From NCBI GenBank assembly GCA_965279525.1, contig CBDIIB010000005.1:1056001-1120000 (forward strand): DNA of 64,000 nucleotides. Direction: 5' to 3'. The position numbers and the translations under genes were made by a program. Source of the DNA: Tagaea sp. Lineage in GTDB: Bacteria; Pseudomonadota; Alphaproteobacteria; CACIAM-22H2. Shown piece after piece: positions 2,807 to 18,415 of this stretch. Each line of letters starts with the position of its first letter. Positions within the stretch are counted from its first letter, which is position 1. A model generated the notes under the pieces. It saw nothing but the letters and a program-made list of their open reading frames with translations, had not been told where the DNA came from and ran no database searches.

Positions 2807-2851
2807 CCTCACCCTAGCCCTCTCCCCTTGCGGGAGAGGGCTAGGGTGAGG
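2807..2851. repeat. Perfect 20-bp inverted repeat (REP-like intergenic palindrome / possible bidirectional terminator)
   Basis: CCTCACCCTAGCCCTCTCCC-CTTGC-GGGAGAGGGCTAGGGTGAGG between convergent genes. Confidence 0.9.
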
Positions 2852-2882
2852 GGATCGCCATCTTCGATCCCGCCACGGTCGG
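2841..2882 (-). pseudogene. Displaced 3' fragment of the enolase-superfamily gene (PTVAGSKMAIPSP*)
   Basis: Minus-strand codons 2882-2853 give PTVAGSKMAI versus LTVAGSVAAI at 5453-5424: 7/10 aa and 20/30 nt identical, with five synonymous third-position differences. Confidence 0.65.
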
Positions 2883-2889
2883 CCCCTAT

Positions 2890-5298
2890 TCAGTCGAGGC
2901 GAATCATTTCCACTGCTTTCCCCAGACGTTCAGCCGTTTTGTCAAGGTTGGCTAGAATGCCACCGACGTCTTTTGAGGCTTCAAGATAAATTGTTTTGTT
3001 CACGTACTTGGTTCCAGGTCCAATTGCCCACCCATCATTTTCAAGTATCCCCACCGCGGATGCCAGTCGATCTGGCCACGTTTTCTCGACTTTTGACCAA
3101 TCTGCCTCGGGATTTAATTGATTGTGGAACGTCAGAAGTACCGAGTTACTTTTTATGCTCCCCTTCAGAGCACAGAGCCGCCCCGGTCTTCCAATACGAG
3201 TGAAAGTTGCACCATCGTCGCTTGATAGATAGCTATTGTCGAATGCACGAGCAAATAGCTCTTCGGCGCAAATATCCGGGGTTATTGAAGTGAGCTTTCC
3301 TCCCAATGCGCGGTCGATTTGCGAGAGGATTGCCCCAAAAGTCCGGACAGTTATTCTAAGCTGTGATTCTGGATTGGTAGAGCTTCGAATCAACCAACGA
3401 AGACGCGCAGCTGCAGATTTCCATTTGACCTTTGGATCTTGCCTGACACCGCTAGAAATCAAACCCAACCAATCTAAAGACTTGCTTCCGCCACTTGGCG
3501 GGGGCTTACCAGTCGCGCAAAAGTACGCCGTCATTCCAATTCCATATGAGTCAACAAGTGCTGATCTTGCTGCTTCTGCGTTTCCATCAGGAAGCTGCTC
3601 GGGTGCGTAATATGCCGCCTCGTCAGTACTACCGGAAATGCTCTCGCCTTGGGCATTCGAATGCCAAGACATGTCATAGTTCAATAACGTAACACTATGC
3701 CGGGAACCTCCTTCGAATGCTTCACATGCTTCTTCATCCCAATAAAATCTGGGAACCATAATGTTTGAAGGTCTCACATCTCTATGCAACACGCTTTCAG
3801 GCAGCGCGTGGGAGTTCTCAATATGATCGCATACGTTGCAGAGAACTTTTATGCCGTCGAGCCAAAAGTCAAATTTACTATCCAGCGCGATTTGCGCCAA
3901 ATTGGCTCCGTCGACAAACTTCATAATCATGCATGATGGAATCTCAACTGCATCCACTATTTCCGCCGTACCGGGGACTTTAGCTTTTGTTAGATAACGT
4001 AGAGATTGTACACCCCGCCGGAAGCTCTCAAGTTGAGGGCCTTTTTCCAAATTCTCGATCTTAATGATCTTTAGTGCGTAGTCATTGCTCTCCGAATCCG
4101 AGATTCGCCAGATTGAAGAGAAGGGGTTGCTGGATATCTTTTCCCTAACCACATATCCAAGAAATACGTTCGATGGAGCCTCTGTTGTGACATGCCAAGA
4201 CATATAAACCGCTCTAGAGTACTTCTTTAGAAATTCTTTATACTCGGCTGAATCAGTATTTCCAGAATTGCGGGCCAATATATCTCTGGCGTATCCCGCA
4301 AGTTCACCTCGAAGTTGGTCGTCATTGTCTAGTTCAATAAGTTCTTTCGGCGTGCGGATCTTTGTGCTTCTAGCGACGGACCCTACAACTGCTGGCGCGG
4401 CAGAATCGCGAGATACAAAGTTTTTGAGACTTTCGAGAATCTCAACTATTGCCGTAGTGTGATCAATTGTGTCGTCTGAAGCTCTGGTTGGCTGATAATT
4501 TATAACCTGAAGCTGTGTTTTTGCCGCCCATTTAGCGGTAGTCCCATCATTCCTGCTCGTAATCCAAAAATGTTGGTCGAGATCAACATGACTTCTTGTC
4601 ATTTCCTCAAGGAAGCCACCAACCGCTAAGTCGTCGGCTGAAATCCCGAGAAAAACAATGGTCAAATCTTTGAGAATGTAGTCGATAAATTGCCGGTACT
4701 GGCTATTTGAAAGGAGATGACTCAAATCACCTTTAGTAAACACCCATGAGTCAGCGTTTTCATGAACGCCATGGAGATTTGCGATGAACGGCTTTCTCTG
4801 AGAAACCCGATGAATATACGGACCCGCATCTTTACCGGAAAACTCCATCGAATCTTCGTGCGAACGAATAAGGCGATGGGAACGACGGGCCATTCCATCG
4901 ATATTCAAAGTCAGAACACTCTTAACGCCGTCAAGCTTCCAAAGCTCTTCATACACTCTAGGTGGATCAACACGTTCGGCCTTCTCAAACACCTCTCGAA
5001 TCGCCGATCGATATTTTGCAGCCCCGAGAACATCCCGCAATGTCTCGAAGGAATCCCAAAGAGACGCATCCGATCCAAGACGCTCTAATCTGTCTTCAAT
5101 CTCATCTACTTTTGACGCTTCAGCAGTCAACAATTCTTGCTTAGCTTCATCGGCTAAAATGTCACGAAGTTCTGACCATGAAGGCAAGCCTGCTGGCTGG
5201 CTAATCCCCGCGCCAATCCAAAACGCAATATCCTTTGTCCGCTCTGCGTACCTGCGGCCCAAACGAAGAAAGCTACCTTGATTTGGATTGAAAAGCAT
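2890..5298 (-). CDS. SIR2-like domain fused to a Ser/Thr protein kinase-like domain (802 aa); putative anti-phage defence protein
   Basis: SIR2-type motifs FWIGAGISQPAGLPSW, TLNID, NLHG, IVFLGISADD; kinase motifs YALK, HRDVRPSNI, YYAPEQ, DSYGIG; markedly AT-rich relative to flanks. Confidence 0.85.
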   Translation of the reverse strand: MLFNPNQGSFLRLGRRYAERTKDIAFWIGAGISQPAGLPSWSELRDILADEAKQELLTAEASKVDEIEDRLERLGSDASLWDSFETLRDVLGAAKYRSAIREVFEKAERVDPPRVYEELWKLDGVKSVLTLNIDGMARRSHRLIRSHEDSMEFSGKDAGPYIHRVSQRKPFIANLHGVHENADSWVFTKGDLSHLLSNSQYRQFIDYILKDLTIVFLGISADDLAVGGFLEEMTRSHVDLDQHFWITSRNDGTTAKWAAKTQLQVINYQPTRASDDTIDHTTAIVEILESLKNFVSRDSAAPAVVGSVARSTKIRTPKELIELDNDDQLRGELAGYARDILARNSGNTDSAEYKEFLKKYSRAVYMSWHVTTEAPSNVFLGYVVREKISSNPFSSIWRISDSESNDYALKIIKIENLEKGPQLESFRRGVQSLRYLTKAKVPGTAEIVDAVEIPSCMIMKFVDGANLAQIALDSKFDFWLDGIKVLCNVCDHIENSHALPESVLHRDVRPSNIMVPRFYWDEEACEAFEGGSRHSVTLLNYDMSWHSNAQGESISGSTDEAAYYAPEQLPDGNAEAARSALVDSYGIGMTAYFCATGKPPPSGGSKSLDWLGLISSGVRQDPKVKWKSAAARLRWLIRSSTNPESQLRITVRTFGAILSQIDRALGGKLTSITPDICAEELFARAFDNSYLSSDDGATFTRIGRPGRLCALKGSIKSNSVLLTFHNQLNPEADWSKVEKTWPDRLASAVGILENDGWAIGPGTKYVNKTIYLEASKDVGGILANLDKTAERLGKAVEMIRLD

Positions 5299-5344
5299 TC
5301 CAGCACCCTTGAGATTTAATATTTTCTGGTTGTGTATTTTTTCA

Positions 5345-5380
5345 ATTATAATTTAGTATGCATATCTCGCCGAATGTCAA
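5345..5380 (-). promoter_or_regulatory. Putative sigma70-type promoter region of the SIR2-kinase gene
   Basis: Minus strand has TTGACA (5380-5375), then TACTAA at a 16-nt spacer, TAAATT at 19 nt and TATAAT at 24 nt, in an AT-rich leader; the exact pairing is ambiguous. Confidence 0.45.
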
Positions 5381-5417
5381 ATATTGGTCGACGATTCAAT
5401 TTGGACTTGTGCGGGCA

Positions 5418-6527
5418 CTACTCAATTGCCGCCACCGAACCCGCGACCGTCAGCTTCTCGACCGACGGCCAGTCCCATTCGATGCCGAGGCCCGGCGTGG
5501 TCGCCGGTGCCACGTGGCCGTCGGCGACGTGCACGGGGCTGGGGGCGACGGCGTCGAGCTGCGGGATGTATTCGAGCCAGGCCGAGTTGGGCACGGCGCA
5601 CACGAGTGCGAGGTGCAGCTCCATCAGGAAGTGCGGGGCGACGGCCACGTTGCAGCACTCGGCCATGTGCGCGACCTTCAGCCACGGCGTGATGCCGCCG
5701 ATGCGCGCCACGTCCACCTGAACGATGCCGCAGGCGTTGCGCTTCAGGTAGTCCGCGAACTGGCCGGGCGAATAGAGCGACTCGCCCACCGCGATCGGGA
5801 TCTGCGTGCCGGCCTGCAGGCGCACGTGGCCGTCCACGTCGTCGGCGGGCAGCGGCTCCTCGAACCAGTCGAGATCGAGATCGGCCCACAGCAGGGCGCG
5901 GCGCAGCGCTTCGGCCGCCGTGAAGCGCTGGTTGGCATCGACCATCAGGCAGAAGCCGGGCCCCACGGCCGCGCGCACGGCCGCAAGGCGCCTGCGGTCT
6001 TCGGCACCCGAAGGCTTGCCGACCTTGAGCTTGGCGCCCGCGAAGCCCTGTTCGCGCGCCTTCAGCGTCTCGTCGACGAGCTGTTCGGGGGGATGGTGCA
6101 GCCAGCCACCCTCGGTCGTGTAGACCGGGATGCGCGTCTTGGCCCCGCCGGCGGCCAAGTGCAGCGGCAGCTTCGCGCGCCGGCAGCGCAGGTCCCACAA
6201 GGCCGTGTCGATCGCCGCCATCGCCAGCGACGTGATGGCGCCCACCGTGGTCGCGTGCGTGTGGAAGAGCATGCCGTTCCAGATGCCCTCGATGGCGTCC
6301 GCGTCCTTGCCCAGCAGATACGGCCCCAGACAGTCGCGCAGCATCGCCATCACGGCCGAGCCGCCCGTGCCGATCGTGTAGCTGTAGCCCGTGCCCACGG
6401 CGCCGTCGGCGTCCCAGATCCGCACCATCGGCGTTTCCTGGCGCACGAAGGATTGGATGGCGTCTGTCCTTACGACCGGAGGTACGAGGTCGACCTGGCG
6501 GATTTCGATCCGGACGATGCGCGACAT
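5418..6527 (-). CDS. Mandelate racemase/muconate lactonizing enzyme family (enolase superfamily), likely sugar-acid dehydratase
   Basis: AAIDTALWDL, KLKVG, MVDANQ, WFEEP, GESLY, DVARIGGIT, PGLGI. Confidence 0.92.
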   Translation of the reverse strand: MSRIVRIEIRQVDLVPPVVRTDAIQSFVRQETPMVRIWDADGAVGTGYSYTIGTGGSAVMAMLRDCLGPYLLGKDADAIEGIWNGMLFHTHATTVGAITSLAMAAIDTALWDLRCRRAKLPLHLAAGGAKTRIPVYTTEGGWLHHPPEQLVDETLKAREQGFAGAKLKVGKPSGAEDRRRLAAVRAAVGPGFCLMVDANQRFTAAEALRRALLWADLDLDWFEEPLPADDVDGHVRLQAGTQIPIAVGESLYSPGQFADYLKRNACGIVQVDVARIGGITPWLKVAHMAECCNVAVAPHFLMELHLALVCAVPNSAWLEYIPQLDAVAPSPVHVADGHVAPATTPGLGIEWDWPSVEKLTVAGSVAAIE

Positions 6528-9546: not shown

Positions 9547-10422
9547 ATGGAACTCGTGCTGCTGGGCACCGGCTGCCCGCAATGCGACCCCGAGCGGCGC
9601 GGGCCGGCGAACCTTCTTCTCGCGCGCGGCCTCACGTTCCTCGTCGATTGCGGCTCGGGCGTCACCCAGCGCCTCGTCGAGGCGGGAACGAAGGGGGCAG
9701 CACTCGACGCCCTTTTCCTCACGCATCTGCACACCGACCATCTGGTCGATTTCTACCAGCTCGTGATCTCGGCCTGGCATCAGGGGCGCACGCGGCCGTG
9801 GCGCGTGTTCGGCCCGCCGGGCACGAAGGCGTTCGTCGACGGCACGATGGCGCTGTGGGCGACCGAGCGCGCACAACGCATCTCGCACGAGAAACGCGCG
9901 TCGACGTCCGGATTCGACATGGACGTGACCGAGATCGGCGCCGGCACGGTCTGGGATGAAGGCGGCGTGCGCGTGACCGCGGTCGCGGTCGCCCACCAGC
10001 CCGTCAAGCACGCCTTCGGCTATGTGTTCGAAGCGGACGGCCGCAAGGTCGCGTTCAGCGGCGACACGGCGTATTGCCCGGCCTTGATCGAAGCGGCGAA
10101 AGGCGCCGATGCGCTCGTCCACGAATGCTTCCTGCATGCCGAGATGCCGGTCGTCGCCGGTATACGCACAGCCGAGACGGTGGCGGCGGTCGCCTCGTAT
10201 CACACGCCGTCAGACCAGGTCGGCCGCGTGGCGCAGGAGGCGGGCGTGCGCGTGCTGATCCTCAACCATTTCGTGCCCACGCGCTTCGACCGCCACCGGC
10301 TGATGGACGAGGTCGCGGGCGGCTTCGCCGGTCCCGTGGCCATCGGCGAAGACCTGATGCGCTACGACTGCGTCCGGCGGCGCTTCACGCACCGCGACGG
10401 CGTGGTTACGCTGGGGGCATGA
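9547..10422 (+). CDS. MBL-fold metallo-hydrolase, RNase Z/arylsulfatase-like
   Basis: LLGTG, LVDCG, THLHTDH, FSGDT, LVHE, YHT, LNHF. Confidence 0.88.
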   Translation: MELVLLGTGCPQCDPERRGPANLLLARGLTFLVDCGSGVTQRLVEAGTKGAALDALFLTHLHTDHLVDFYQLVISAWHQGRTRPWRVFGPPGTKAFVDGTMALWATERAQRISHEKRASTSGFDMDVTEIGAGTVWDEGGVRVTAVAVAHQPVKHAFGYVFEADGRKVAFSGDTAYCPALIEAAKGADALVHECFLHAEMPVVAGIRTAETVAAVASYHTPSDQVGRVAQEAGVRVLILNHFVPTRFDRHRLMDEVAGGFAGPVAIGEDLMRYDCVRRRFTHRDGVVTLGA

Positions 10423-11695: not shown

Positions 11696-12460
11696 TCAGA
11701 AGCGGTCCTTCGCACCCCGCACGGCGGCGAACACCGCGTCGGGCGAAGATCCGGCAAGCCCCATCGCCTGCGCCAGGCCCGCATCGTCGGCACGCAGGAA
11801 CGGATTGGTGCGCTTCTCGAGGCCCAGCAGCGACGGCACGGTCGCAAGGCCCTGCGCGCGCGCCGCGTCCACGTCCTTCGCGCGCGCGACGAGATCGGCG
11901 TTGCCGCCATCGACCGACAGCGCGAATCGCGCGTTGCTCTGGGTGTATTCGTGCGCGCAATAGACCTGGGTGTCGTCCGGCAGGGCGCGCAGCTTGCCCA
12001 GCGAGTTCCACATCTGCGCCGGCGTGCCCTCGAACAGCCGGCCGCAGCCAAGTGCAAACAGCGTGTCGCCGCAGAACAGCGCCTTTTCGGCGGAAAACCA
12101 GAACGCGATATGGCCGCGCGTGTGGCCCGGCACGTCGAAAACCCGGGCGGCAGCCTCGCCCAGCCGGTACGTGTCGCCGTCGGCGACGGCCACGTCGATT
12201 CCCGGGATTCGGGCGGCATCGGCCTGCGGCCCGACGATCGTGCAGCCCCAGCGCTGCTTAAGCGCAAGATTTCCGCCGACATGGTCGTCGTGGTGATGGG
12301 TATTCAAGATATGGGTGAGGATGAAGCCCCGGGCGACCAGCCTTGCCTCGACCGGCTCGGCATCGGCCGGGTCGACGACGGCGACGGCCCCGGTCTCCGG
12401 CTCATGGACCAGCCAGATATAGTTATCCGTCCGGCAGGGGATACGTTCGATCTCGAGCAT
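11696..12460 (-). CDS. gloB: Hydroxyacylglutathione hydrolase (glyoxalase II)
   Basis: DNYIWL, THHHDDHVGG, PGHTRGH, GDTLFALGCGRLFEG, CAHEYT, EKRTNPFLR. Confidence 0.95.
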   Translation of the reverse strand: MLEIERIPCRTDNYIWLVHEPETGAVAVVDPADAEPVEARLVARGFILTHILNTHHHDDHVGGNLALKQRWGCTIVGPQADAARIPGIDVAVADGDTYRLGEAAARVFDVPGHTRGHIAFWFSAEKALFCGDTLFALGCGRLFEGTPAQMWNSLGKLRALPDDTQVYCAHEYTQSNARFALSVDGGNADLVARAKDVDAARAQGLATVPSLLGLEKRTNPFLRADDAGLAQAMGLAGSSPDAVFAAVRGAKDRF

Positions 12461-12520
12461 CGCACCATTGTATCGGAGAAGAGCCAACAGTTAATATGCC
12501 CGTCTTCGCGGAGAGACGCC

Positions 12521-14266
12521 TTGGCCCTGTTCAGCAGAAAAGAAAGCTTCGAAGTCCATTGCCTGAAGGAGAACCGCTGGGTCATCGAGACCAGCATTCC
12601 CAATCAGACGGAGGCCGAGGCCTACGCGCGCAAGCTGCTCGAAAAGAAAGAGATCCTCGGCGTCAAGGTCGTGCGCGAGCGCGAAGGGCGTTCGTCGAAT
12701 ACCGAGGCGATCGTCTTCACCAAGGTGAAGGAAAAGAAGGAAGAGAAGATCACGATCGGCCAGATCGACAGCGCGCCGGTCTGCCAGACCGCCGGCGAAT
12801 GCTGCGAACTGCCCGCGCGCATGGCCCTCAACCGGCTCTTCCGCCAGTATCTCGACAAGCAGAACCTGACGCCCATCGAGATCCTGCACAATTACCGCGA
12901 GATCAAGCGCGTCCAGGATTCCGACTCGCTGATGACCAGTGCGGTCGGCCAGCTCGCCACGCTGCAGGCCGCCTCGGGGCCGGCGGCCGGCACCGTCATC
13001 CAGCGCCGCGACGCGCTCTACGGGTTCCTGGGCGAGCTCACCAAGCGCGCGAAGGATGTCGAGACCCTCCAGCTCCCGTCGATCAAGCAGATCGGCGTCG
13101 ACCAGATGATCGCGAAGATCGCACCGCGCGCCGGCGACGATCCGGAGAACGCGAACTACCTGTTCCGCGTGGCGGTCAGCCGCGAGCTGATCGACATCCG
13201 CAGCTATCTTGGCAAGCTCGACCGCTCGCTGATGTGGGTCGAGGACAGCCAGGACGACGAGGCCGCGCGCCTGCTCGACGATTTCGTGTGCGACGTGCTG
13301 GGGACCAGCAGCGTCATCCAGGACCTGCTCGGCGAGCAGCCCAGCCTGATGGCCGCGGTCAGCAAGCTGCTCGATCTGGCGCAAGGGCGCTGGGAAGCCC
13401 CGCCGCCGGGTGCCGGCGGAGCCGCCGCTGCCGGCGGCGAGGAAGACCGCATGGCCAAGATCGGCCGGCTGATCGCCAGCGGCCGCCTGCCCAATTGCGG
13501 GCGCGTGCTGGTCGAGCGCGTGCGCCTGCAGCTTGCCGGCGCCAATCCGCTGGTGCGTTCCGATCCCGAGCAGGAAGTGCCGAGCTTCCGCCTGCTGCTC
13601 GACCGGCTGGTGCCGGACAACGACGCGATCTTCGGCGGCACCGACATGATCGACGCGCTCGTCCAGCGCAAGATGCGCATCCTCAACCGCGGCGGAGCCG
13701 CCGGCTACCGGGCGGCGGCGACCTGGATCTGCATGGTGATGCTCAATCCCGTGCGCAAGACGCGCTTCCTGATCGCGCTGACGCAGTCGCCGACCGGCCA
13801 GCAATATCCCGAGGAGACGTTCGGGCTGATCGACGACGTGCTGGTCAAGGTCGAGTCGATCTCCGACATCGTCAAGGCGCGCGTCCCGCCCAACGAGAAG
13901 ATGGCCGGCATCACGCTGGTGTGGAACGAGATCCGCCGCGCCCCCCTGCCGCTCGAGCATGTCGAGCGCATCTGCACGCGCCTCGACGACCTGCTCGTCC
14001 ATTTCGTCAAGTCCGAGCGCATCCTCGAGAAGATCGACGATCCGGCACGACCCCTGCGCATGCGCACGATGATGCTGATGAAGATGTGCCTGCCCACCTC
14101 GCTGCCGCCGGGCAAGGCGTCGAACCTGGCGCGCGAGATCATTGTGGGCATGCTCAAGCGCCAGAATTTCGAGAACGAGGTCGTGGCCGACATCGTCGAC
14201 CCGGCCGAGAAGGCGCGCGCCCAGCGCGACCTGTTCGTGCTGATGCGCCAGGCCGGCTTCATGTGA
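12521..14266 (+). CDS. Large hypothetical protein (~580 aa)
   Basis: Long ORF with strong host codon bias from about TTG 12521 (GGAGA upstream); no motif recognised; divergent from gloB. Confidence 0.75.
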   Translation: MALFSRKESFEVHCLKENRWVIETSIPNQTEAEAYARKLLEKKEILGVKVVREREGRSSNTEAIVFTKVKEKKEEKITIGQIDSAPVCQTAGECCELPARMALNRLFRQYLDKQNLTPIEILHNYREIKRVQDSDSLMTSAVGQLATLQAASGPAAGTVIQRRDALYGFLGELTKRAKDVETLQLPSIKQIGVDQMIAKIAPRAGDDPENANYLFRVAVSRELIDIRSYLGKLDRSLMWVEDSQDDEAARLLDDFVCDVLGTSSVIQDLLGEQPSLMAAVSKLLDLAQGRWEAPPPGAGGAAAAGGEEDRMAKIGRLIASGRLPNCGRVLVERVRLQLAGANPLVRSDPEQEVPSFRLLLDRLVPDNDAIFGGTDMIDALVQRKMRILNRGGAAGYRAAATWICMVMLNPVRKTRFLIALTQSPTGQQYPEETFGLIDDVLVKVESISDIVKARVPPNEKMAGITLVWNEIRRAPLPLEHVERICTRLDDLLVHFVKSERILEKIDDPARPLRMRTMMLMKMCLPTSLPPGKASNLAREIIVGMLKRQNFENEVVADIVDPAEKARAQRDLFVLMRQAGFM

Positions 14267-14724
14267 ACGACCAGGCGGCCGACGGCCCGGTCGCGCGCGC
14301 CGTCGCGCGCGGGACCGGCCGGCTGCTGGCGCGGCTGGGCTGGACATCCCTGCCCGAGTTCCCGCTCGCCAGCGGACGGCGGGCCGACCTGCTTGCCCTT
14401 TCGGAAGATTCGCGCGTGCTGGTCGTCGAGATCAAGTCGTCGGCCGCCGATTTCCGGTCCGACCGCAAATGGGCCGAATATCTCGACTGGTGCGACCTGT
14501 TCGCCTTCGCGGTTCCCGCCGATTTCCCGGTGGCCCTGCTGCCGCCCGAAGCCGGCCTGATCGTCGCCGACGCCTACGATGCGGTCATCGCGCGCGAATT
14601 CCGGATCCTGCCGAAGCTCGTGCCCGCGCGGCGCAAGGCGCTGGTGCTGCGCTTCGCGAAGCTGGCCGGCCAGAGATTGCACCGGCTGGCGGACCCCGAC
14701 GGGATGCGGGAAATCCCGTCCTGA
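14263..14724 (+). CDS. mmcB: MmcB family DNA repair protein (PD-(D/E)XK endonuclease-like)
   Basis: EFPLASGRRADL, VEIKSS..DFRSDRKW.EYLDWCD, GLIVADAY; GTG overlaps the upstream stop. Confidence 0.9.
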   Translation: MNDQAADGPVARAVARGTGRLLARLGWTSLPEFPLASGRRADLLALSEDSRVLVVEIKSSAADFRSDRKWAEYLDWCDLFAFAVPADFPVALLPPEAGLIVADAYDAVIAREFRILPKLVPARRKALVLRFAKLAGQRLHRLADPDGMREIPS

Positions 14725-14789
14725 GCGGCGCTTGCCGCGCGCGAAGCGGCAGCGCTAGGGTGGCAGGCATCCTAGGAGACATACGGATC

Positions 14790-16532
14790 ATGCAAGACAC
14801 ACCGCGCCCGCATGTCGGGCTTGCGACGTTCCTCGTGCGCCTGTGGCGCCTGACCCGACCCTACTGGTTCGCCGAGGACCGCTGGGCCGCGCGCGGCCTG
14901 TTCGCGGTCGTGCTCGCGCTCACGATCGGCGGCGTCTATCTCGAGGTGCTGTTCAATTCGTGGAACAACGAATTCTACAACGCGCTGCAGGAGAAGGACG
15001 AGGCGACGTTCTGGACGCAGTTCGGCGTGTTCGGCTGGCTGGCCGTGCTGTTCATCGCGAACTTCGTCGCCACGCGCTATTTCAGCCTGTGGCTCCAGAT
15101 CCGCTGGCGCGCGTGGCTGACGAAACGCTATGTCGACAGCTGGCTCACGGCCCGCGCCTATTACCGCTTCCAGGTGACCGGCGCCGAGACCGACAACCCC
15201 GACCAGCGCATCGCCGACGACGTGCGGCTGTTCGTTTCGACGACGCTGGGGCTGGTCACGCAGCTCATCAACGCGGTGCTGACGCTCGCGGCGTTCCTCA
15301 CCATCCTGTGGGGCCTGTCGGGCGACTTCACGATGACGCTATTCGGCACCGAGATCGCGATTCCGGGCTACATGGTGTGGTTCGCCCTCGTCTATGCCGT
15401 GCTCGGCACGTGGCTCACGCATCTGGTGGGAAAGCCGCTCGTCCCGCTCAACTACGCCCAGCAGCGCTACGAGGCGGATTTCCGCTTCGCGCTCGTCCGT
15501 CTGCGCGAGAATGCCGAGCAGGTGGCGCTCTATGGCGGCGAGGGGCGCGAGCGCGAGAACTTCCTGCGCCGCTTCGCGGGCGTGGCATCCAACTGGTACG
15601 CGCTGATGTGGGCGGGGCTGAAGCTCAACCTGTTCACCAGCCTGTTCGGGCAGCTTGCCATCGTTTTCCCGTTCATCGTCGCGGCCCCACGCTATTTCTC
15701 GGGCGCCATGCAGCTGGGCGGGCTGATGCAGACCGCCTCCGCCTTCGGCCAGGTGCAGGGTGCCTTGTCGTTCTTCGTGCAGGCCTATTCGCAGCTCGCC
15801 GACTGGAAATCGGTCGTCGACCGGCTGCTCGATTTCGAGGCCGCGGTCGCGGCGGCCGAAGCCGCCGCGCGCGTGTCCCCGCTCGTCGAGGAAACGTCGA
15901 AGGACGGGACGCTCGCCATCGACGGCGTCGATGTCGGCCTGCCGGGCGGGGCCACGCTGATCGCGGGTGCGACCGCGCGCGTTGCACCGGGGGCGCGCAT
16001 CCTGCTGACCGGCGATTCAGGCTCGGGCAAGAGCACGCTGTTCCGCGTGTTCGCCGGCATCTGGCCGTTCGGCCGCGGCAAGATCGCGATGCCGGAACGC
16101 ACCGGCATCCTGTTCTTGCCGCAGAAACCCTACATGCCGATCGGCAGCTTGCGCGAAGCGCTGCTCTATCCGCATGCCGGCGGGGCCGACGACGCCACGC
16201 TCAGCGCCACGCTCGAAGACGTGCGCCTGCCAGATCTTGCCGGCCGGCTCGACGAGGTGGCGCACTGGGGCCAGCGCCTGTCGCCGGGCGAGCAGCAGCG
16301 CCTCGCGGTGGGGCGCGCACTTCTCGCCAAGCCCGCCTTCCTGTTTCTCGATGAGGCGACGGCGGCATTGGACGAAGCGACCGAAGCGCATGTCTATGCG
16401 TTGCTGGCCGAACGCCTGCCGCACACGGCCATCGTCAGCATCGGCCACCGGCCGGGGCTGAAGGCCTTCCACACGGCGTTCTGGCACGTGACGAAGTCGC
16501 CGGCGGGGCCGGCTAAGCTGGCGGTGGCCTAG
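14790..16532 (+). CDS. ABC transporter fused permease/ATPase (YddA / ABCD-like)
   Basis: DNPDQRIADD, YEADFR, Walker A GDSGSGKS, LSPGEQQR, LFLDEAT, SIGHR. Confidence 0.92.
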   Translation: MQDTPRPHVGLATFLVRLWRLTRPYWFAEDRWAARGLFAVVLALTIGGVYLEVLFNSWNNEFYNALQEKDEATFWTQFGVFGWLAVLFIANFVATRYFSLWLQIRWRAWLTKRYVDSWLTARAYYRFQVTGAETDNPDQRIADDVRLFVSTTLGLVTQLINAVLTLAAFLTILWGLSGDFTMTLFGTEIAIPGYMVWFALVYAVLGTWLTHLVGKPLVPLNYAQQRYEADFRFALVRLRENAEQVALYGGEGRERENFLRRFAGVASNWYALMWAGLKLNLFTSLFGQLAIVFPFIVAAPRYFSGAMQLGGLMQTASAFGQVQGALSFFVQAYSQLADWKSVVDRLLDFEAAVAAAEAAARVSPLVEETSKDGTLAIDGVDVGLPGGATLIAGATARVAPGARILLTGDSGSGKSTLFRVFAGIWPFGRGKIAMPERTGILFLPQKPYMPIGSLREALLYPHAGGADDATLSATLEDVRLPDLAGRLDEVAHWGQRLSPGEQQRLAVGRALLAKPAFLFLDEATAALDEATEAHVYALLAERLPHTAIVSIGHRPGLKAFHTAFWHVTKSPAGPAKLAVA

Positions 16533-17248
16533 GGCGCCTGCATTACGACGAAATTGAACGTCGTGCGCGGAACGAAACCGAGCCGCTCGTAGAGCGTGCG
16601 CGCCGAAGGGTTGTCGGCATAGAGATGCAGGAACGGCCGCTCGCCGCGCGCGGCAATGCTTGCCATCAGCGATTTGACCAGTGCGAGCGCATGGCCCTTG
16701 CCGCGAAAGTCGGGATGGACGCACACCGCGCTTATCTCGGTGAAGCCCGCGGGCCGCATGCGTTCGCCCGCCATCGCCGCAAGCCGTGCACCGGCGCGGA
16801 TGCCGATATAGCGGCCAAGCTCGTGCGTGCGCGAAAAGAACGGACCGGGCTTGGTCAGCGCGGTCAGCTCCAGCATTTCAGGCACGTCGGCGGGCCCGAG
16901 CGTTTGGGGCGCGAAGGCGGGATCGGCGGCGGGCAAGTCGGTCGCGATCATCTGCAGGATCCGCGCGGCGGCCCGGATCTCGAGCCCGTCGACCGGGGCG
17001 GGATCGGTCCCGTCGGGATAGAGCAGACCGACCGGGCCCGTACCCGCGACGTCGCGCAGTTCGCGACGTGCTGCCGGCGTTTCCTCGAGGAACGCCGCGA
17101 ACGGCGAGATCTCGGCGGGATAGCGCAGCACGGTTTTCCCGCGCAGTGCCAGATGGCGGTGGCCGGTCTTGAGCGCGGCCAGGATCGGCTGGTCGAGTGC
17201 GGCGGTCTGTTCGGGAGAAAGGCGGATCATGCGGTCGGAAAATACCAT
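16529..17248 (-). CDS. GNAT N-acetyltransferase (FR47-like)
   Basis: TKPGPF, AMAGER, EISAVCVHPDFRGKG, LYERLGF; start may be 17230. Confidence 0.88.
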   Translation of the reverse strand: MVFSDRMIRLSPEQTAALDQPILAALKTGHRHLALRGKTVLRYPAEISPFAAFLEETPAARRELRDVAGTGPVGLLYPDGTDPAPVDGLEIRAAARILQMIATDLPAADPAFAPQTLGPADVPEMLELTALTKPGPFFSRTHELGRYIGIRAGARLAAMAGERMRPAGFTEISAVCVHPDFRGKGHALALVKSLMASIAARGERPFLHLYADNPSARTLYERLGFVPRTTFNFVVMQAP

Positions 17249-17281
17249 GCACGACCGGGCAGGCCAGTTCGAAATGAAAGA

Positions 17282-18415
17282 CTACAATCGTGGCGCGTGG
17301 ACCGCCATCCGGTCTGCGAAGCCCTTCAATTCGAATTCGCCAAGGGCGCGCAGCGGTCCCTCGACGAGGGCAGCGAAGTCGCCCGACATCACGATGGGCT
17401 CTTCGAGGGCGCCGCACAGCTTCTCGATGCGCGCGAGCAGGTTGACGTCGCGCCCGATGATCGTGAAGTCGAGCCGGTCGCCCGCACCGATGTTTCCATA
17501 CGCGACCTCGCCGACATGCAGCGCCATGCCCACGCGTCCGCCGCCGGCATCGTCGGACGCCAGCGCGGCTTTCGCCGCCGCAAGTGCGGCGGCACAGGCG
17601 GCCTTCGCATCGCGCGCGTCGGTGATCGGAAAGATGGCGAGCACGCCGTCGCCCATGAATTTCAGCACTTCGCCGCCCTCGGCCACGATGGCCGGTACGA
17701 CGCGGTCGAGATAGGCGTTGATCGCGGCGACCGTCGCCTCGGGTGTGCCGGCGTTGGCGAGCACCGTGAAGCCGCGCAGGTCGCTGACGAACAGGGCCGC
17801 GCGGATGCGCTTCACGTCGCCGCGCCTTATGGCGCCCTTGAGGATGCGCTCGGCGGGCTCCGAGCCCACATAGGCCTTCAGGATTTCCGACCACATGCGG
17901 TGGACGGCCTGGATGTTCATCACCGCGGCGAGGGTCGGGCGGATCGCGCGCAGCAGGGCGAGGTGTGCGGGCGAGAAACCACCCGGCTCGCGCGTGGAAT
18001 AGGAAATGCCGTTCAGCGGCTCGTTGCGGAACTTGAGCGGCATCATCAGGTAGTGGGTGTGGCCATCGTCGCGAAGTCCCGGCAGCAGGTCGTATTTCTC
18101 GATTTCCGGATCGTCGAGGTAGCGCTCGAACTCGGCGCCGGTTTCCTGCAGCACGTCGACGGAGTAGATTTTCGTCGCGTGCGTGATGACGGGATCGTCG
18201 AACGTGGCGCGGCGCAGGCGCATGTCGCTGCCCTGCTCCCACACGCGCATGGCGCCCACGAAGCGCGGATGCAGCGTCTCGACGATCGAGGCGACCCGCG
18301 CGACCGGCACGCCTTCGGCCAGCAGCTTGCCGGCAAGCTGCTCGATCAGCACGCCCATGTCGGGAAGATGGGCCGCTTCTTCGAGCAGCCAGTCGATGAC
18401 GCGGTTGGCATCCAT
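17282..18415 (-). CDS. Class III adenylate/guanylate cyclase with N-terminal GAF-like region
   Basis: SDLRGFT, VLKFMGDGVLAIF, GNIG...RLDFTIIGRDVNLLARIE, LKG. Confidence 0.9.
   Translation of the reverse strand: MDANRVIDWLLEEAAHLPDMGVLIEQLAGKLLAEGVPVARVASIVETLHPRFVGAMRVWEQGSDMRLRRATFDDPVITHATKIYSVDVLQETGAEFERYLDDPEIEKYDLLPGLRDDGHTHYLMMPLKFRNEPLNGISYSTREPGGFSPAHLALLRAIRPTLAAVMNIQAVHRMWSEILKAYVGSEPAERILKGAIRRGDVKRIRAALFVSDLRGFTVLANAGTPEATVAAINAYLDRVVPAIVAEGGEVLKFMGDGVLAIFPITDARDAKAACAAALAAAKAALASDDAGGGRVGMALHVGEVAYGNIGAGDRLDFTIIGRDVNLLARIEKLCGALEEPIVMSGDFAALVEGPLRALGEFELKGFADRMAVHAPRL

Follow-up and report, generated by a model that had tools for sequence, protein, structure and literature searches.

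Bacterial immunity counts NADases of the SIR2 type among its most common killing modules; human innate immunity has relatives of them, and the question that each such system poses is how its NADase is switched on. In Thoeris, the effector ThsA senses its ligand through a SLOG or Macro domain and requires the TIR protein ThsB, and Lamassu requires the SMC-like protein LmuB, with or without LmuC; Stk2 and PD-T4-6 represent defence of the kinase type. DSR2 is described as sensing a phage tail tube protein and depleting NAD+ (PMC11087589), the human protein FAM118B is presented as a sirtuin similar to the bacterial antiphage sirtuins (PMC12700824), and a preprint gives a 12-fold enrichment near defence systems for the SIRim clade of sirtuins (10.1101/2024.09.18.613514). 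The gene treated here lies in a stretch of 64,000 nucleotides from Tagaea sp. (contig CBDIIB010000005.1, positions 1,056,001 to 1,120,000; hereafter the window). Named P0001 in the list of open reading frames (ORFs), it occupies positions 2890..5298 on the minus strand, begins with ATG and encodes a protein of 802 amino acids (aa), in which a SIR2 domain is followed by a Hanks-type protein kinase domain and a small C-terminal domain (CTD). We consider it reasonably likely that this gene is a one-gene defence system of the abortive-infection type, directed against phages or mobile elements, with the SIR2 NADase as its effector.

A preliminary description, made from the letters of the window, had placed an 802-aa ORF at 2890-5298, and the ORF is present there, on the minus strand, both in the list and in the translation. 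All of the motifs that it named were recovered in the translation: GAGIS at residues 29-33, AGLPSW at 36-41, TLNID at 130-134, LHG at 175-177, FLGISADD at 216-223, YALK at 407-410 and HRD at 505-507. The limits that it gave for the two large domains (5235-4490, corresponding to residues 22-270, and 4160-3310, corresponding to residues 380-663) agree with the Pfam ranges.

The SIR2 domain (4402..5235, minus strand; residues 22-299), defined by Pfam, PADLOC and profile matches, is of the immune type (SIRim/SIR2_2), as the preliminary description, which proposed searches domain by domain, had led one to expect. Pfam SIR2_2 (PF13289) aligns with residues 127-266 over positions 2-141 of its 141 (E = 3e-11; 44 bits against a cut-off of 24.5), and the best PADLOC match is a SIR2-type LmuA (PDLC03856, E = 8.9e-14), which covers residues 22-299 with profile positions 15-277 of 433. 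In an alignment of 123 family sequences, to which all statements on conserved residues refer, G29, G31, N132, H176 and D223 do not vary, while conservation at S33 and D134 is 90% or more; the mean pairwise identity of the domain is 0.381. The Rossmann motif GAGIS (GxGxS), the catalytic-type Asn (TxNxD) and the His (xHG) are thus all kept, and N132 and H176 stand at what we take to be the positions of the catalytic residues in enzymes of the ThsA/DSR2 type. A search of the PDB with the SIR2 profile gave FAM118B (8.2e-15, residues 18-285), ThsA (9.9e-14 to 2.8e-9), the Kongming NADase KomC (4.6e-13) and DSR2 (3.8e-8, residues 20-266), and DSR2 H171A occurs as a molecule name among the matched structures. 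The match to canonical sirtuin-2, at about 0.01, was confined to the Rossmann motif (residues 16-51). Canonical sirtuins carry a Cys4 zinc module; in this protein the first cysteine is residue 456 and none occurs in residues 1-455, and the zinc module is therefore absent. By these profile matches the domain is closer to the antiphage NADase sirtuins than to the deacylase sirtuins, and it is placed in the SIRim immune branch as a predicted NADase with all of its catalytic residues kept.

A mostly helical linker (4174..4401, minus strand; residues 300-375), recognized from the secondary structure of the model and from the alignment, joins the SIR2 domain to the kinase; its R330 is invariant and its mean pairwise identity is 0.312. 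The Hanks-type protein kinase domain (3319..4173, minus strand; residues 376-660) was found by Pfam, HMMER and Foldseek alike. Pfam Pkinase (PF00069) matches residues 390-651 (E = 1.1e-10; 41.8 bits against a cut-off of 31.7), the family profile matches structures of PknB/Stk1 at 2.4e-31, and Foldseek superposes the domain on PknB (1o6y) with a TM of 0.75 on the target. K410, H505, D507, D542, E567 (the APE Glu, in P566-E567), D583 and R648 are the same in every sequence, conservation at R506 and N512 is 90% or more, and HMMER pairs K410, D507 and N512 with the AVK, HRD and N of PknB. The DFG motif is replaced in the family by D-M/L-S-W-H (D-M-S, with D542, in the window copy); D542 was assigned as the DFG Asp by eye from the alignment, HMMER having mis-paired this segment because of an insert of about 20 aa. 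As far as the alignment tells, the kinase keeps its phosphotransfer residues.

The CTD (2893..3300, minus strand; residues 667-802, about 136 aa) was delimited with the domain model, Foldseek and VIA-align. The C-terminal domain of about 140 aa could not be assigned in the preliminary description, and it proved to have no sequence relatives in Pfam, among PDB sequences (phmmer, E ≤ 10) or in the ESM Atlas. Modelled alone, it gave a pLDDT of 93.7 and the order alpha-beta3-alpha-beta2-alpha. Foldseek ranked ExsC first (E = 3.8e-4, TM 0.47-0.50), the other matches being SicP, SchA, STM2138, YbjN, CesT, VecA and AmyR. VIA-align aligned 122 of the 136 residues with AmyR (Z 7.2, root-mean-square deviation 4.5 Å), and further matches were AvrPphF-ORF1 (6.9), DR_1245 (6.9), SycN-YscB (6.8) and Spa15 (6.5), with unrelated folds interleaved at similar Z. 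The two aligners agree, and the model likely represents the fold shared by the class-I chaperones of type III secretion systems (T3SS) and YbjN, the 'TY-chaperone' fold. Peptide-binding 'TY-chaperones' were unified by Iyer et al. (2022; PMC9503650), where they are also predicted in other NAD/ADP-ribose conflict systems. With a mean pairwise identity of 0.244, the CTD is the least conserved and fastest-evolving part of the protein. A complex prediction for two CTD copies (score 0.00, mark 0.42), run without controls, is not evidence either way.

The full-length AlphaFold2 model, built on an alignment of 123 sequences, has a mean pLDDT of 92.7 and a pTM of 0.92, with no segment below 50, which predicts one fixed packing arrangement for the three domains. 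The Foldseek list for the full-length model was filled by kinases.

The gene differs sharply from its surroundings in base composition. Its GC content is 0.470, against 0.683 for the rest of the window, in line with the contrast of the mid-40s with 68-70% that had been estimated by eye. Its GC3 is 0.436 and that of the neighbouring genes 0.89 and 0.92. The 284 other 2409-bp stretches of the window have a mean GC of 0.683, with a standard deviation of 0.013 and a minimum of 0.650, so that the deviation of the gene is far beyond chance; no second low-GC segment was found across the 64-kb window. The AT-rich leader that had been attributed to the gene is also real: 119 nt on the minus strand between the ATG and the stop codon of the upstream MR_MLE gene (5299..5417), with a GC content of 0.361, lie within the inserted DNA described below. 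A promoter scan of the leader returned a single weak sigma-70-like match (9/12, at 5345-5318), and shuffled sequences give as many; for promoters and terminators together the counts were likewise not above those of shuffles. Four sequencing runs that contain the gene are listed, all from one study, and no RNA run is among those listed.

To the left of the gene lie genes for a GST and for a family-5 solute-binding protein (SBP_bac_5), followed by a perfect hairpin, and to the right lie those for an enolase-superfamily protein (MR_MLE), the TRAP transporter DctPQM and an MBL-fold protein; the SIR2-kinase-CTD gene stands just downstream of the MR_MLE gene in the same orientation. None of these is a known SIR2 partner, as had been noted before. 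A scan of seven window genes, of which two lie on the left side of the insert and five on its right, brought up no TIR domain. The hairpin, a REP-like perfect inverted repeat after SBP_bac_5 (2807..2851, no strand assigned; arms 2807-2826 and 2832-2851, 20 nt, 100% complementary), is not a classic intrinsic terminator because it has no T-run. The same element is present at the empty site of the same-genus genome G011, and it belongs to the host backbone, outside the insert. At that empty site, related copies of the hairpin apparently occur twice, as judged by extra short BLAST matches.

The edges of the insert are marked by an imperfect 30-bp direct repeat, of which the left copy (2854..2883, no strand assigned) is a decayed duplicate of the MR_MLE 3' end and the right copy (5425..5454, no strand assigned) is the functional one. 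The two copies are identical at 21 of 30 positions in a local alignment, a score reached by 4 of 1000 shuffles. This degenerate repeat was detected by aligning the junctions to empty sites; a general repeat search of the window missed it. When compared with the empty site of G011, the left copy together with the end of the hairpin aligned alike at 34 of 42 positions and the right copy at 32 of 34. Both copies correspond to one and the same stretch of the empty site, and the insert therefore measures about 2,541 bp (2884-5424); as read by eye, it contributes the last two or three codons of the MR_MLE gene. No integrase or transposase was found in the islet, and no tRNA in the window.

A DNA search for the flank pair in 18 same-genus genomes found the flanks adjacent in seven and at separate places or on separate contigs elsewhere. 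In six of the seven the gap between them is short (19 bp in G013, 23 bp in G016, 32 bp in G014, 58 bp in G011, 69 bp in G007 and 128 bp in G012), as compared with about 2.6 kb in the window. In the seventh, G010, 1,149 bp at the same spot carry a single gene in the opposite orientation, encoding a DUF3800 protein of 280 aa (L086:5261-6103; Pfam E = 7.2e-9), and the site therefore accepts alternative cargo. The spot between the SBP_bac_5 gene and the MR_MLE 3' end behaves as a small hotspot that takes up single genes as cargo. A protein search of 21 genus genomes, 16 of them at least 90% complete, recovered the gene in one, the window's own, where it is present in one copy. In short, the gene is a recent insertion of 2.54 kb at a variable intergenic spot, and its description as a lone gene was borne out in the form of a lone insertion with empty sites in six genomes of the genus.

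The family to which the protein belongs is large. A word-indexed search gave 142 relatives, the nearest 49% identical and nearly all 770-820 aa long with both Pfam domains, and in an exhaustive search of representatives the number of clusters (at 50% identity) was 673 with a limit of E ≤ 1e-10 and 401 with a limit of E ≤ 1e-30. In species-representative genomes, at least 303 loci were confirmed by tblastn. The SIR2-kinase-CTD architecture, of about 790 aa, is constant across the family, and the labels on its named members are generic only ('SIR2 family protein', 'protein kinase domain-containing protein'). The 80 loci that were kept come from at least 13 phyla, among them Chloroflexota, Actinomycetota, Planctomycetota, Acidobacteriota, Bacteroidota, Ignavibacteriota, Verrucomicrobiota, Myxococcota, Thermodesulfobacteriota, Armatimonadota, Bacillota and Pseudomonadota. 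For 62 loci with a tblastn match over most of the protein, ORFs were called heuristically and the surroundings analysed. The GC content of the gene is below that of the 5-kb flanks in 60 of the 62; the median difference is -0.10, and in 48 loci the deficit amounts to 0.05 or more.

A tree was built from 47 intact members, the 16 of 62 loci with ORFs of odd length being left out. The phylum labels change 18 times on this tree, where the minimum is 12 and the mean after shuffling 30.6, so that part of the inheritance is vertical. All 11 Actinomycetota rows fall together with 90% SH-aLRT, which is under the 95% threshold for a star. Well-supported groups that cross phyla are the pairs of Chloroflexota with Nitrosomonadales and of Anaerolineales with Alphaproteobacteria, and a clade of Motiliproteus, Desulfospira and Roseburia. 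Judging by the tree and the distribution, the family is one that moves horizontally and is patchy across phyla.

An intact ORF of 740-900 aa was found in 46 of the 62 loci and ORFs outside this range in the other 16. Decay takes various forms: a frameshift (L047), an insertion of about 830 bp (L054), an internal deletion (L069), and truncation by transposase genes, of ISL3 type adjoining L070 and of rve/IS3 type in L062. In L064, a 5'-truncated copy, which retains the kinase region, stands beside a BglII-type restriction endonuclease and an N6/N4 DNA methylase (L064:11170-12692, minus strand). The frameshifted copy of L047 is, at 42% identity, the closest relative of the window gene among the loci analysed. 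It is directly followed by an ORF of 780 aa with no Pfam match (12503-14842, plus strand) and by one of about 1,100 aa (14879-18175, plus strand), both co-oriented, which could be further, uncharacterised defence-island cargo.

These broken or odd-length copies, together with the decayed left repeat, raise the question of whether the AT-rich ORF of the window is itself a decaying or functionless relic of an old insertion. We hold this to be very improbable, since its 802 codons are intact in a sequence of 47% GC, every family-invariant residue is present and the AlphaFold2 model is confident throughout, with nothing below a pLDDT of 50.

The neighbourhoods of the homologues bear more directly on function. 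The 1,018 neighbouring proteins of the 62 loci were compared by BLAST, all against all, and no conserved partner gene emerged: the largest genuine neighbour cluster covers 6 of the 62 loci at scattered positions, and no conserved small neighbour resembling an antitoxin was found. An apparent '+1' neighbour cluster of seven loci consisted of pieces of broken focal genes and was discarded. The suggestion of a self-contained gene therefore holds over these loci.

The near neighbours (within two genes on either side and at least 100 aa long; 225 proteins, scanned in two batches of 129 and 96) include recurrent Pfam families, namely ResIII (five proteins), SWI2_SNF2, Helicase_C, SMC_N, AAA_21, EcoEI_R_C and HSDR_N, as well as TrwC, HTH and transposases; housekeeping genes, such as those for tRNA synthetases and ABC transporters, were also seen. 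At E ≤ 1e-15, PADLOC matched 102 families in the batch of 129 proteins and 67 in that of 96. These matches include restriction-modification components of Type IV (four proteins) and of Types I, IIG, II and III, together with mad3, PbeA, DndF, HEC-01A/B, RmrA, LmuA, JetB/JetC (Wadjet) and a PD-T4-6 kinase. For comparison with more distant genes, 129 of the 169 situated over 6 kb away from the focal gene in these loci were scanned; they matched seven families, mostly generic, among which are mad3, mad2, GlgB, NsnA, RecD-like and PDC-S68. A check of homologue neighbourhoods had been proposed beforehand, and its outcome favours defence: the immediate neighbours are rich in known defence genes and those more than 6 kb away are not.

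The same neighbourhoods could be read in a non-immune sense. The gene might encode an accessory signalling or stress protein that links NAD+ status, or de-acylation or ADP-ribosylation, to Ser/Thr phosphorylation, or it might be selfish, toxin-like cargo of a mobile element, maintained by addiction instead of phage defence. Metabolic and transport genes surround the window copy, which is co-oriented directly downstream of MR_MLE, and many homologues have housekeeping neighbours (tRNA synthetases, ABC transporters), while transposases and relaxases near homologues would suit selfish cargo. A non-immune role sits poorly, however, with a gene found in one of 21 genus genomes and with clean empty sites elsewhere, and with a SIR2 domain that lacks the zinc module and resembles canonical sirtuins only at the Rossmann motif; the concentration of defence genes beside the homologues, and not 6-10 kb off, also speaks against it, as does the lack of a conserved antitoxin-like small neighbour. 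We regard such a role as quite unlikely.

Several observations weigh against the interpretation as a defence system, or against parts of it. The comparison of 102 with seven PADLOC families overstates the fold-enrichment because families were counted and one protein may match many redundant models; the neighbour ORFs were called heuristically, the tallies are at the level of families, and the defence context stems from homologues at about 24-35% identity. The near-distant contrast, as seen in these profile matches, is still large. The window copy itself stands among housekeeping genes, outside any defence island. No homologue was found at E ≤ 1e-10 among 72,556 plasmids, and a phage collection gave just five weak matches, to the kinase domain, at 20-25% identity. 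A kinase and CTD joined to another effector was not found, the three kinase-only loci examined being truncations and the protein databases not having been searched for shorter or longer forms. The structural scores of the CTD are in the 'common' range, with Z values, 7.2 at most, below the 8 that VIA-align treats as clear. Finally, the alphaC motif of the kinase reads FRRG where PknB has FRRE, with G429 (at least 90% conserved) at the position of the Glu, presumably the alphaC Glu that pairs with the beta3 Lys; and the P-loop, which is GAFGxV in most of the family, is without glycine in the window copy and its nearest relatives (S/N-x-P-F-S-x-I/V-W). The kinase, as aligned, might be weak or unconventional. 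The Hanks-type kinase of the preliminary description thus stands as regards the Pfam match, the PknB fold and the catalytic residues, and needs amending as regards the alphaC Glu, which is a Gly, and the glycine-rich loop, which is degenerate.

These features of the kinase also bear on the possibility that the kinase is the main effector, in the manner of Stk2 or PD-T4-6, and phosphorylates many host or phage proteins, with the SIR2 domain as an auxiliary or as a sensor of NAD+. The kinase is the best-conserved domain (mean pairwise identity 0.416), with K410, D507 and D542 invariant; its best PADLOC matches are defence kinases (MkoA 4.6e-17, mad6 2.4e-15, PD-T4-6 4.5e-15), PglW is matched as well (8.5e-7), and a PD-T4-6-like kinase occurs among the neighbours of one homologue. 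However, a missing alphaC Glu and a degenerate P-loop suit a switch better than an effector of high turnover, and a pure NAD+ sensor would not need the Asn and His that are invariant in the SIR2 domain, nor the Asp that is at least 90% conserved. The SIR2 domains of solved relatives are, moreover, named as NADases ('NAD(+) hydrolase' for ThsA, 'NADase' for KomC). A kinase effector therefore appears improbable to us.

If SIR2 is the effector, as we prefer, the parts of the protein could work together as follows. The N-terminal SIR2 domain, once switched on, would hydrolyse NAD+ and halt the infected cell, by analogy with DSR2, ThsA and KomC. The fast-evolving, chaperone-like CTD would be the sensor and might bind an extended stretch of a phage protein or of a host protein altered by infection, and the kinase would couple sensing to firing through auto- or trans-phosphorylation. 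Because the alphaC Glu is missing, the kinase is probably inactive at rest; this lack would hold it off until the sensor is engaged, and the compact, confident model would represent the resting, autoinhibited state. The preliminary description had likewise supposed that the kinase and C-terminal module would gate NAD+ depletion. As a whole, this order of recognition by the CTD, transduction by the kinase and activation of SIR2 by phosphorylation is put forward tentatively, as a possibility that we rate well below even chances. A more specific version, in which the kinase and CTD constitute a new kind of sensor, the CTD capturing an extended, unfolded stretch of a phage protein, much as T3SS chaperones capture effectors, and thereby presenting it to, or activating, a crippled kinase whose phosphorylation frees the SIR2 NADase, is argued from analogy and seems unlikely as it stands. 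If true, phosphorylation would for the first time be seen to gate a sirtuin immune effector, and 'substrate-capture' would be a sensing mode new to bacterial immunity, in a family spread over at least 13 phyla. In any event, the union of SIR2, a catalytic-looking kinase and a small domain of peptide-binding appearance in one polypeptide offers a compact and tractable case for phosphorylation-gated NAD+ depletion, and, if protection from phages is true, a new one-gene system for the catalogue and for the tools of defence annotation.

Two other features of the window may be recorded here. A long ORF at 12400-14263 (plus strand), of about 620-770 aa depending on the choice of start, has no Pfam match at E ≤ 0.001, and the first kilobase of the stretch that holds it is slightly poorer in GC (0.636). 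The MBL-fold protein of the right flank (9547-10422, plus strand) has a sub-cut-off match to the anti-Pycsar protein Apyc1 (E = 6.8e-4; 19.6 bits against 50), in all likelihood a sign of nothing more than the metallo-beta-lactamase fold that the two have in common.

The preliminary description did not recognize the architecture as a named system, and no model covering the whole of it exists in PADLOC-DB v2.0.0 (2023) or NCBIfam 20.0. Text searches of the openly available literature found no description of a SIR2-kinase fusion, although the family may be listed, unnamed, in the supplements to large defence screens or to the SIRim phylogeny. Individual parts do resemble known proteins. As regards the kinase, the likeness to PD-T4-6, Stk2, MADS MAD6, Mokosh MkoA and BREX PglW is limited to residues of about 357-667; these defence kinases are without an N-terminal SIR2 domain, and the NCBIfam models score far below their cut-offs (36.2 bits against 460 for MAD6, 28.2 against 990 for PglW). 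FAM118B (human SIRim) is the closest solved SIR2 domain, but it is a stand-alone, filament-forming vertebrate protein with neither a kinase nor a chaperone-like domain. The T3SS class-I chaperones and YbjN share the order of secondary structure with the CTD and align with it over nearly its full length, whereas they are free small proteins and the CTD is fused and shows no detectable sequence similarity to them.

Among the immune systems, Thoeris shares with this gene a SIR2 NADase effector, ThsA, whose structures are matched by the SIR2 profile; the present protein, however, has no SLOG or Macro domain (Pfam finds SIR2_2 and the kinase only) and no TIR neighbour, and its PADLOC match to ThsA is limited to residues 21-51. 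In Lamassu, the SIR2-type LmuA is what the SIR2 domain matches best in PADLOC, but no SMC gene is adjacent in the window, nor is one conserved next to members of the family. Closest in plan are DSR1 and DSR2: in each of them, too, a single long polypeptide starts with a SIR2 NADase of the immune type and ends in a region that serves for sensing, and the PADLOC Dsr1 model matches residues 21-245 at 2.5e-7. They differ in being about 1000-1200 aa long, with helical-repeat sensors and no kinase, where the present protein has a Hanks kinase and a small chaperone-like domain, and the NCBIfam Dsr1 model gives 11.7 bits against a cut-off of 1400. With full-length models that fail by far, and without the partners or domains that define these systems, the protein falls outside DSR, Thoeris and Lamassu. 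By analogy, it would work most like the single-protein sirtuin systems of the DSR type, and its novelty would lie in a sirtuin-based defence with a new control module, made up of a kinase and a chaperone-like domain, in a family that is widespread yet unnamed.

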